A stretch of DNA of 63,846 bases, filler included, from Reclinomonas americana ATCC 50394 (lineage: Eukaryota), in NCBI GenBank assembly GCA_048213135.1. It is 7 parts of 4 records of this genome, joined end to end, with 100 filler letters (N's around TTAATTAATTAA, not from the genome) between each part and the next. Parts side by side here need not be neighbours in the genome. Positions count along the whole stretch, not along the records: positions 7,663 to 20,831 come from PS015824.1; 6 more parts are not named here. One strand, written 5' to 3'. Positions 10,601 to 13,600 of this stretch are shown here, piece after piece; the first letter of the stretch is position 1, and each line of letters starts with the position of its first letter. The notes under the pieces are model-generated. The model had not been told where the DNA came from, did not search any database, and saw only the letters and a program-made list of their open reading frames with translations. The position numbers were made by a program, and so were the translations under genes.

Positions 10601-13600
10601 TGCAAGCGCCGGTCCTGTCGACGCTTCACCGCCATCCGCTGCTGGCGGTGCAGCGTCGCCTGCTTCCCACTCAGCAGCTGGAGCACCGCCTTCGGGCAGT
10701 GATGTGAATTCTTCACATGCCGCTGCTGGCAGTGCGGCATCAGCTGTTACCCAGCCAGCTGCAGCACCGCAGGCAACAAGTGCCGGGTCAATGGCGCATG
10801 TTGGTTCACCTGCAAGCGCCGGTCCTGCCGACGCTCCGCTGCCAGTCGCTGCTGGATCGCCTGCTTCCCACTCAGCAGCTGGAGCACCGCCTGCAAGCGT
10901 GAATGTGCATTCTTCACATGCTGCTGCAGGCAGTGCAGCATCATCAGCTGTTACCCATCCAGCTGCAGCACCGCAAGCAACAAGTGCCGGATCAGTCGGT
11001 TCACCTGCAAGCACTGGTCCTGTCGAAGCTTCACCGGCAGCCGCTGCTGGCGGTACAGCATCCGCTGCTTCTCACTCAGCAGCTGGAGCGCCGCCTTCTT
11101 CACATGCCGCCGCCGGCAGTGCGGCGTCGGTAGCCCATCCGGCTTCAGCACCACCGCAAGCGACACATGCCGGATCGGCAGCGCCAGTCGGTTCACCTGC
11201 AAGCGCCGGTCCTGCCGACGCTCCGCTGCCAGTCGCTGCTGGATCGCCTGCTTCACACTCAGCAGCTGGAGAACTGCCTGCAAGCGTTGACGCACATTCT
11301 CCACCGGTCGTCAGCCATCCAGCTGTGGTTCCGCAGGCCACACATACCGGATCACCATCAAGCGCATCTGTTGCCAGGCCACAGGGCAGTGTTGGCGCGT
11401 CGGCACTCCCGGCAGCACATGCCGGAGCACCTGCAAGTGCCGAGTCGTCCGACGGACTGCCTTCAAGCACTGTTGCGCCTGCGCCACCGGCCACTCACAC
11501 TTCAGCGTCGAGCGACCCAGCAGCCGTTGTACCTTCGCTGGCGGCGTCGGTTGCCAAGAAGCCATCGCCGCGTGGTGCGCCTGGCACATCGTCGCAACCG
11601 ACCAGTGCGTCGGCCTCACCGCGTGTACCCTCCGGATCGGCGATTGCAGCCAGTCTGCTGGCACGCACTGGTTCCACCGTGGCCACGGACGCGAAAGCAC
11701 ATCGTGCAGAGGAGGCACGTGCGCTGTTGGCCGCGCGTCGCCAGCAGGCGGTGCAACACATTGCGGAGCTCGAACATGACCGTGCTGCGCAGGCAGAGGA
11801 GATTCGCCGACTGCAGAATGCACTGGCAGACAGCAGCGACAAGCTGCAGCGACTGAATGAGGCCTACAGGCAAATGGAGGCTCGCAACGCTGCCGAGCGC
11901 GAACGGTTGCTGGAGGACCACCTTCGAGTTCCGTGGCGTGTTATCTGTCACTCCCTGCTTGCTCAATGTCTCACCTCTCTTTCTCCGTCGTGCAGGAGTT
12001 GCAGCTGCTCCAGAGTGAGCTGGCTGACGAGCGAGACAACCTGCTGCAGGAGAAGAGCACCGAAATCTCGCGACTGCAGCAGATGCGCGATGCCGAGTTG
12101 GAGGCCAAAGAGTCGGAGATGCGAGCCAAGGAGGCGGAGATGAAGGCGCGTGCTGAGCAAGAGGCCGCTGAGAGGAGGCGACTTATGCAGGAGCACGAGA
12201 ACGAACTCGAGCGAGTGCGTCTGGAATTGGTCGACGAGCGCGAGCAGTTGCTGCAGGAGAAGGCCGAAGAAATCAATCGCCTTCAGTCGGAGCGGCAAGC
12301 AGCGCTGGCCACCAAAGCCGACGAGATCTCTCGTCTGGAGGAGGAACAGCGACAACTGCAAGCCGCAGTGGCAGCTGAACGCGATCGACTGCTCAACAGC
12401 CACTTGGAGGTGCTTGGGAGTGTGGGAGTGTTTGTGTGTGACGAAGTATGAAAGCGCGATCGGAAATACTCATCCTGCCTGTATCTGCGCAGGAACTCGA
12501 GCGCTTGCGCGACGATCTGGCCAGTGAGCAGGAGACGCTGGCGGCTCAGAAGGCTCAGGAAATTGAGCAACTGATGGCTGAACGCTCCGCCGAGGCGAAA
12601 GCCATGGAGGACCGCATCACGCAGTTGCAGGTGGAGAGGCAGCAACTGCAGGAGGAGGAGCAGGCCGAGCGCAACCGGCTGATGAGTGAACATTTGGCGG
12701 AAATGCAGCGACTCGAGGCCGAGCGGCTGGCAGCAGTGTCAGCCAAGGAGAATGAAATCACTCGTCTGGCCGACGAGCAACGCCAGCTGCAGGAGCGCGT
12801 GGCAGCCGAGCGAGAACGCTTGATGAAGAATCACTTGGAGGTATCGATGCGTGTCGCAGTTGCCACCCCACTGTGTTTTCCTGTTGCTGAACTTTCGTTC
12901 TGCAGGAGCTGGAGCGTCTGCGCGACGATTTGGCGTCGGAGCAAGAGTCGCTTGCCTCTCAGAAACTACAGGAGATTGAGCAGCTGACCGCGGAACGCGA
13001 TGCAGCTGCCAAGGCAATGGAGGATCGCATCGCGGCGCTGCAGCGAGAGCGTGAGCAACTGGAGGCGGAGGAGGCCGATGCACGGAGCCGGCTCATGAAC
13101 GAGCACGTGGCTGAGTTGGAGCGCATGCGCAGTGATCTGCAAGAGGAGCGAGAATCTGTGCTCACTGACAAGCTGAGTGAGATTGAGCGGCTCACGCGCG
13201 AGCGCGAGGCGCTGCTGGTGGAGAAGTCGTCAACAATCGAGCAGCTCGAAGCGGAGAGGCTACGGCTGACCGAAGAGGAGGCTGCCACACGGCAGCGCCT
13301 CGTCGATGAGCATGTTAGCGAGTTGGAGCGACTGCGTGGAGCCATTGCTGGTGACTCAGAAGCCGAAGGATTGCTGGCCGAGAAGGAGGCTGCGATTCGT
13401 CGCCTGTCACTGGAGCGCGATGCCATGGTGGAGCAGACGAATGCACAAGTGGCGGCCATGCATGCTGAGCGTCAGCGCTTGGAGCAGGAGGGTTCTGGAG
13501 GCGCGATACCAGCGCCCCTGCCGTCTTCACCACCACCGAGGCCTGCACCGGCGCAGTTGCCGTCACCGCCGCCGGCACCCTCCAGTGCCAACAAGTCCGA

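Follow-up and report, generated by a model that had tools for sequence, protein, structure and literature searches.

Three introns at one site of a coiled-coil repeat array and two classes of 5' splice site in Reclinomonas americana

When the same position of a repeated protein carries introns with different 5' splice sites, have the introns changed from one type of splice site to another, together with the last base of the exon, or were they of different kinds from the start? This question is raised by a 63,846-nucleotide (nt) stretch of DNA from Reclinomonas americana ATCC 50394 (GenBank assembly GCA_048213135.1), made up of seven parts of four records joined end to end and referred to here as the window, which is GC-rich (about 60%) and contains N gaps. 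In the part taken from PS015824.1 (positions 7,663 to 20,831), a gene with a coiled-coil repeat array carries three introns at one site of the repeat unit, numbered here 1 to 3 in gene order. An earlier note on this DNA had proposed that, if the three introns are duplicates, their two donor classes interconvert and co-evolve with the exon end, which would argue for one spliceosome that uses two registers. We find that two donor classes, which differ at the base before the intron (-1), do appear to exist in the window. Taken jointly, we think it probable that introns 2 and 3 arose by duplication, that intron 1 descends from an ancestral intron at their common site, that there are two donor types, and that the second type is recognised by the U1 small nuclear RNA (snRNA) in a shifted register.

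The three introns all begin with GT and end with AG, measure 3n+2 nt, and lie in phase 0 between codons 13 and 14 of their repeat units, and their excision restores both the frame and the continuity of the protein. Intron 1 (11928..11995, + strand, 68 nt) reads cgA^GTTCCGTG...GTGCAG^GAG, where a caret marks an exon boundary, and has a variant of the GTT-type ('shifted') donor. Intron 2 (12410..12492, +, 83 nt) reads GAG^GTGCTTGG...GCGCAG^GAA and intron 3 (12841..12905, +, 65 nt) reads GAG^GTATCGAT...CTGCAG^GAG, both with weak donors of the standard type. The successive open reading frames (ORFs) of the + strand, at 8031-12143, 11861-12451, 12442-12987 and 12891-14402, are joined by a frame step of +2 at each of 11928, 12410 and 12841. 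CTCAC is found 23 nt before the 3' end of intron 1 and CTCAT 21 nt before that of intron 2, and intron 3 has no exact copy of the branch-like motif CT[CG]AY. By sequence criteria the three fit short GT-AG spliceosomal introns of the U2 type at a common codon boundary. Introns of the U12 type carry the donor motif RTATCCTT and a matching branch site near the 3' end; that type is ruled out for introns 1-3, whose donors, as given above, differ from RTATCCTT. The hexamer GTATCG is common to the predicted donors at 12841 (+) and 26644 (-), both of which have a base other than G at +5; this may point to a third, minor form of donor or be a coincidence.

Once the introns are removed, the array resolves into seven coiled-coil units, all on the + strand and delimited by unit alignment. 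Unit A (11889..12163) has 69 codons split by intron 1, unit B (12164..12370) has 69 codons and is intron-free, and unit C (12371..12660) has 69 codons split by intron 2. Unit D (12661..12801) is a shorter, intron-free unit of 47 codons with an F-like head fused to a B-like tail, and is followed by unit E (12802..13073), a copy of unit C with 69 codons split by intron 3, and by two further intron-free units, F (13074..13280, 69 codons) and G (13281..13490, about 70 codons). The intron is present in three of the seven units (A, C and E) and absent from B, D, F and G. Units A, B, C, E and F, at 69 residues each, align without gaps across the intron junction, and since B and F are intron-free they serve as internal references for the exact junction. 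No further copies of the repeat were found in the window, all 32 tblastn matches falling within 11600-13520. The earlier note had described the coiled-coil motif correctly and had given the donors (cgA^GTTCCGT at 11928, GAG^GTGCTT at 12410 and GAG^GTATCG at 12841) with the right letters and coordinates. Its claim of a phase-0 intron at the same position in three units is borne out by the frames, the lengths and the unit alignment, which it had suggested as a check and in which the 69-residue units are homologous at the junction.

The same note placed the donor of intron 1 at 11928, and this assignment holds, other frame-keeping pairs of GT and AG breaking the unit length. Intron 1 might instead be cut at GTGGCGT (11933), with an acceptor ending at 12015, or at GTTATC (11940), and would then not be of the GTT type; the open frame is kept in both cases, and the 11933 site reaches 6.0 bits on the GTT-type donor matrix despite a G at +3. 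Such choices would, however, remove five residues (donor +5, acceptor +20) or add four (donor +12), which breaks the 69-residue length, and would put Pro or Trp into the coiled coil, while the acceptor required by 11933 has coding-like surroundings and no pyrimidine or branch context. We regard a cut at either place as very unlikely. The 11933 site (+), five bases inside intron 1 (tcc^GTGGCGTG), may act as a cryptic donor or an alternative one.

A tandem duplication of about 415-430 bp contains both intron 2 and intron 3, which are therefore copies of a single intron. Copy 1 (about 12290-12702, +) holds intron 2 and copy 2 (about 12721-13115, +) holds intron 3; compared in sliding 30-nt segments, the copies share 67-80% nucleotide identity on both sides of the intron, against 30-47% outside. 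At the level of whole units, C and E have 77% amino acid and 73% nucleotide identity, whereas every other pair of units has 37-51% amino acid identity. The duplicated segment would have begun in the tail of unit B and ended in the head of unit F, so that the intron was copied too and the short fusion unit D was left behind; the interiors of the two introns would later have diverged beyond recognition. Introns are known to be copied with their exons in tandem internal gene duplications, and introns 2 and 3, with the same phase and position in the duplicated block and diverged interiors, are an ordinary example. The pair documents fast drift of intron bodies and of donor hexamers (GTGCTT vs GTATCG) with the exon-side AG retained, and is a case of drift within one donor class, without a switch.

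Intron 1 is tied to the other two by its place in the unit. Had introns 1 and 2 been placed independently in a 207-nt unit, they would share a nucleotide position with a chance of about 1/207, or 1/69 if only phase 0 is considered; introns 2 and 3 are not mutually independent in this estimate. Because a match in both position and phase is so rare by chance, it is more likely that intron 1 shares descent with introns 2 and 3. Going by position, the ancestral unit would have had an intron at this site, of which intron 1, in a much older unit, is a descendant and which the other units have lost. Position is the link between intron 1 and the duplicated pair (amino acid identity is 41% for A-C and A-E, and 45% for A-B).

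The donor of intron 1 has counterparts throughout the window. A purpose-built gene finder, which used codon log-odds and an acceptor matrix trained in four rounds, forced GT-AG ends and had no donor matrix, gave 69 predicted introns of 45-150 nt from genes scoring 25 or more. Thirteen of these have GTTNCG donors: ten are GTTGCGT, one is GTTGCGC, one is GTTTCGT and the last is intron 1 with GTTCCGT, so that the class is uniform, with GTTGCG in 11/13. The remaining 56 donors centre on G^GT(G/A)(C/A)GT, and GTTGCGT can be read as the standard motif, G^GTGCGT, in which T has replaced the second G and cleavage falls one base earlier. The two classes differ sharply at -1, where G is found in 1/13 GTTNCG donors vs 37/56 others (Fisher p=1.4e-4), or vs 29/37 when only GTNNG donors are compared (p=1e-5), in agreement with the earlier claim that the donor classes are tied to this base. 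C stands at -2 in 10/13 GTT-type donors against a background of 28% (p=4e-4), and G at +8 in 8/13. On matrices for the two classes, intron 1 scores 1.4 bits as a GTT-type donor (placing it among the highest 3% of GT sites) and -4.5 bits as a standard one. The standard matrix gives 1.7 bits for intron 2 and 0.7 bits for intron 3, for which the GTT-type matrix gives -16.0 and -6.3 bits. The spans of predicted genes contain GTTGCGT 23 times in the sense direction (10 predicted donors, 8 copies in predicted exons and 5 inside predicted introns) and four times antisense. Since the two strands of the window hold 34 copies of this heptamer in all, our count of the GTT class is probably an underestimate. 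The U12 type is ruled out here as well, 0/13 GTT-type introns starting with RTATCCTT. From these counts the two-class system in the window appears to be real and the frequency of its GTT class unusual; a search of the full-text literature, of which logos and supplements are not part, returned nothing on splicing for a GTTGCGT-type donor motif.

Homology allows individual GTT-type junctions to be checked. As a control for the class we used the intron at 3475..3535 (-; gcA^GTTGCGTG) of a CCT/TCP-1-like chaperonin gene (2832-4559, -), a very divergent gene that matches Pfam Cpn60_TCP1 with E=5e-34 and 3e-28. With the junction at 3535, the product reaches a score of 355 when aligned to a CCT homologue, and the seven other frame-keeping variants reach 321 or less; this alignment is gap-free at the junction, and the Pfam profile coordinates are continuous. 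Searched among longer proteins, the same query had a single match, CCT alpha, which is paralogue-like at 24% identity and was the homologue used in this test. A second test is offered by a MYST (KAT8-like) acetyltransferase gene with three consecutive GTT-type donors, at 35476, 35612 and 35920 (+). When the upstream exon is joined through the first of these introns (35476..35542, +, gaC^GTTGCGCG, phase 1), the score rises in 5/7 homologues and is equal in 2/7. For the second intron (35612..35683, +, gcA^GTTGCGCG, phase 1), the GTT-type donor is the best of four against 7/7 homologues (summed scores 5078 vs 4988, 4975 and 4960), and the junction is gap-free and restores the spacing of the chromo-barrel motif. 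Among 30 candidates, the named proteins nearest to one MYST exon come from stramenopiles (48-56% identity), a weak pointer to lineage. In the MYST gene model a short exon near 36589-36706 is absent, which leaves 18 residues unmatched relative to homologues. GTTGCGT donors are also found in 4/6 predicted introns of two large genes (42894-46912, - and 48501-51037, -) that are rich in Thr, Ala, Gly and Ser and have fibronectin type III repeats, and in these genes several intron bodies are very CT-rich or GA-rich.

Apart from their donors, the two classes look like introns of one kind. Median length is 76 nt in the GTT class vs 72 nt in the rest, base composition is alike, and the listed acceptors are alike by inspection, without a formal comparison. 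The branch-like motif CT[CG]AY occurs in 7/13 GTT-type and 33/56 standard introns, that is in 40/69 overall vs 10.4 in shuffled sequences (maximum 18). Mean local alignment scores are 8.8 within the GTT class, 8.0 between the classes and 7.7 among standard introns, and the GTT-type introns have no common sequence past the first eight bases. The view of the earlier note that the classes are not separate in origin finds support in this shared length, composition and branch-like motif and in the lack of a common GTT-class body. Introner-like mobile introns are known from algae and other protists, and there is a resemblance to them here, in that a GC-rich protist genome has numerous short introns, much alike in length and with a recurrent 5' motif. 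Unlike introners, the GTT-type introns have bodies with no common sequence, and a mobile family of this sort was rejected.

The two classes could still be served by two U1 snRNA variants, or by some other dedicated factor, one for each class. The GTT class is both common and very uniform (GTTGCG 11/13), as would be expected of a motif with its own matched partner. Its motif, however, differs from the standard one by a single base and a one-base offset, which is within the reach of one U1, and the other intron features are alike in the two classes; we therefore think two U1s or a dedicated factor quite improbable. Rfam returned 0 matches in the window for U1 or any other snRNA. A single spliceosome with two U1 registers is plausible.

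Shifted-register 5' splice sites were reportedly described in human genes by Roca and Krainer in 2009, and a search of the literature on U1 and 'shifted register' had human and tunicate splicing among the matches listed. Here U1 would pair with TGCGT one position off its usual register, and the intron's own G would take the slot of the last exon base, thereby freeing that base from the requirement for G. One T inserted or deleted at intron position +3 would then convert one donor type into the other and leave the exon boundary unmoved. According to Tan et al. 2016 (PMC4856993), every U1 pair is displaced by one position in a shifted register; with the U1 5' end as printed there, a C at -2 would in that register lie opposite G11. 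Under such a shift the exon-side preferences should also move by one base; the absence of a G preference at -1 is in keeping with this, and so in part is the C at -2. Of the mechanisms considered, a register shift appears to fit best. The GTT-type donors resemble the human shifted-register sites in their fit to the consensus after a one-base slide of U1, in starting with GU and in freeing the last exon base. They differ in frequency, all validated non-canonical registers together making up 1.5% of human sites according to the same paper, vs about one fifth (13/69) of the predicted introns here, and in being a class with a very uniform heptamer, GTTGCGT, known from sequence alone.

A bulge offers another way to read these donors, in which U1 keeps its normal register and one U at +2 or +3 is bulged out. 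GTTGCGT is GTGCGT plus one extra T, and a +3 (or +2) bulge register is listed for human sites in PMC4856993; those sites and the GTT-type donors alike have one U more behind the initial GU than the standard motif does. A bulge, however, should leave G at -1 favoured, and G is found there in 1/13 GTT-type vs 37/56 standard donors; the C at -2 in 10/13 is better suited by a one-base slide of the exon-side pairing. A bulged U is accordingly, to our minds, an unlikely basis for the class.

Several observations weigh against the combination of duplication, common descent and shifted register favoured above. The gene finder forces GT-AG ends and is wrong in places (the cyclase-like region of the host gene is mis-modelled, one MYST exon is dropped and the low-complexity part of the host gene is split), so the class counts are approximate. 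G precedes GTT in only 17% of cases window-wide, and 1/13 is not a depletion relative to that figure (p=0.33); the GTT class is one without a preference for G at -1, rather than one that avoids it. Standard donors have no preference for C at -3 (17/56), and for this reason the C at -2 is more than a standard preference moved along by one base; a shifted U1 register would explain the preferences at -2 and +8 in part only. The third MYST donor, at 35920, is tied with a donor not of the GTT type (5078 vs 5075). Intron 1 itself, at 1.4 bits, is far below the 8-11 bits of typical members of the GTT class and departs from the consensus at +4 (C for G) and at -2 (G for C). The bodies of introns 2 and 3 are similar only at the level of chance, 180/500 shuffles reaching their score, as do 100/500 for introns 1 and 2 and 87/500 for introns 1 and 3, although for the duplicated pair such a loss is expected of old neutral sequence. 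The identities among units do not group the intron-bearing units A, C and E, and a two-unit super-repeat, (A,B)(C,F), was rejected, its identity pattern being absent among the units.

These last results bear on a further possibility, namely that unit A acquired intron 1 by a separate, parallel gain at the matching site, in a favoured exon context, and that no class switch took place. Unit A is no nearer to the intron-bearing C and E (41% amino acid identity to each) than to intron-free units (45% to B, 40% to D and 39% to F), the intron sequences share nothing above chance, and four of the seven units have no intron, all of which would suit independent gain. It would nevertheless require the improbable match of exact position and phase estimated above, and the GTT-type introns have no common body to mark a mobile, site-seeking element. 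Missing similarity is moreover to be expected either way, as short introns diverge fast, which the pair of introns 2 and 3 illustrates. On balance we consider independent gain unlikely, and descent of intron 1 from an ancestral intron at the common site the better account.

As to the switch between donor classes proposed in the earlier note, it is correct that intron 1 differs in class from introns 2 and 3, but the sole proven pair of copies stays within one class. A class switch would be consistent with the data; given common descent, the array would preserve a single change at most, in one direction or the other, for which one T gained or lost at +3 would suffice, with the exon boundary in place as observed. 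A bolder generalisation, which we offer tentatively and would not yet favour, is that at least a fifth of introns are recognised by U1 in a register displaced by one base, with GTTGCGT the commonest donor heptamer, that an intron flips between registers by a single T at +3 with its exon boundary unmoved, after which the last exon bases drift to suit, and that unit A vs units C and E represents one such flip.

The repeat array is a neat illustration of these relationships and little beyond that, and the wider interest lies in the donor classes. A shifted motif that serves about one fifth of introns would be a natural system for studying how the cleavage site is chosen under an out-of-register U1, and such a genome would also suit the study of co-evolution between donor and exon end and of whether one U1 is sufficient. 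Annotation is affected too: gene finders trained on just one donor matrix will overlook GTT-type introns or put them in the wrong place.

The host gene of the array spans 8031..17013 (+), within approximate limits set by ORFs, frames, the purpose-built gene finder and tandem repeats; its open frame begins at 8031, passes through several frame changes and ends in a stop at 17013. This large eukaryotic gene encodes, in order, a long coiled coil, a Pro/Ala/Ser-rich low-complexity stretch, the seven-unit array and, 3' of the array, a probable class III cyclase-like region. The cyclase name for the 3' region is a tentative one, based on sequence motifs. In Pfam searches with exons run singly, one exon matched PF00211 (E=0.043, 13.9 bits, under the cut-off of 21.9) and no other exon of the gene did; its other Pfam matches were weak and of coiled-coil type only. 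A search of PDB with two exons of the cyclase region gave no match. No orthologue of the host gene, nor an annotated protein of the organism itself, was found: a word-based search among longer proteins with the exon 12906-14402 gave none, HMMER against all representatives gave four weak coiled-coil matches (best E=1.5e-4, none at 1e-10), and among metagenome contigs 594 pattern matches yielded 0 confirmed.

The host gene may contain a second GTT-type intron at 15396..15460 (+, phase 0), read from the sequence as aaA^GTTACGTG...CTGCAG^GG with the donor GTTACGT. This candidate is one of 13 frame-keeping choices, and the gene finder models the region differently; it is preferred solely for the cyclase-like motif that results, itself a tentative identification. 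Within the long ORF of the host gene, 10478-11282 (+) consists of about four tandem copies of a 201-204-nt unit with 72-79% matches. These repeats encode a Pro/Ala/Ser/Gly-rich low-complexity stretch, at which the gene finder splits the gene with doubtful introns.

The window also contains paired runs of 44 N with 12 bases between them, at 7563-7662, 20832-20931, 34567-34666, 56240-56339, 58130-58229 and 59866-59965. Further N runs of 236-566 bases occur in it, and the N pattern looks like an artefact of assembly or masking rather than biology.

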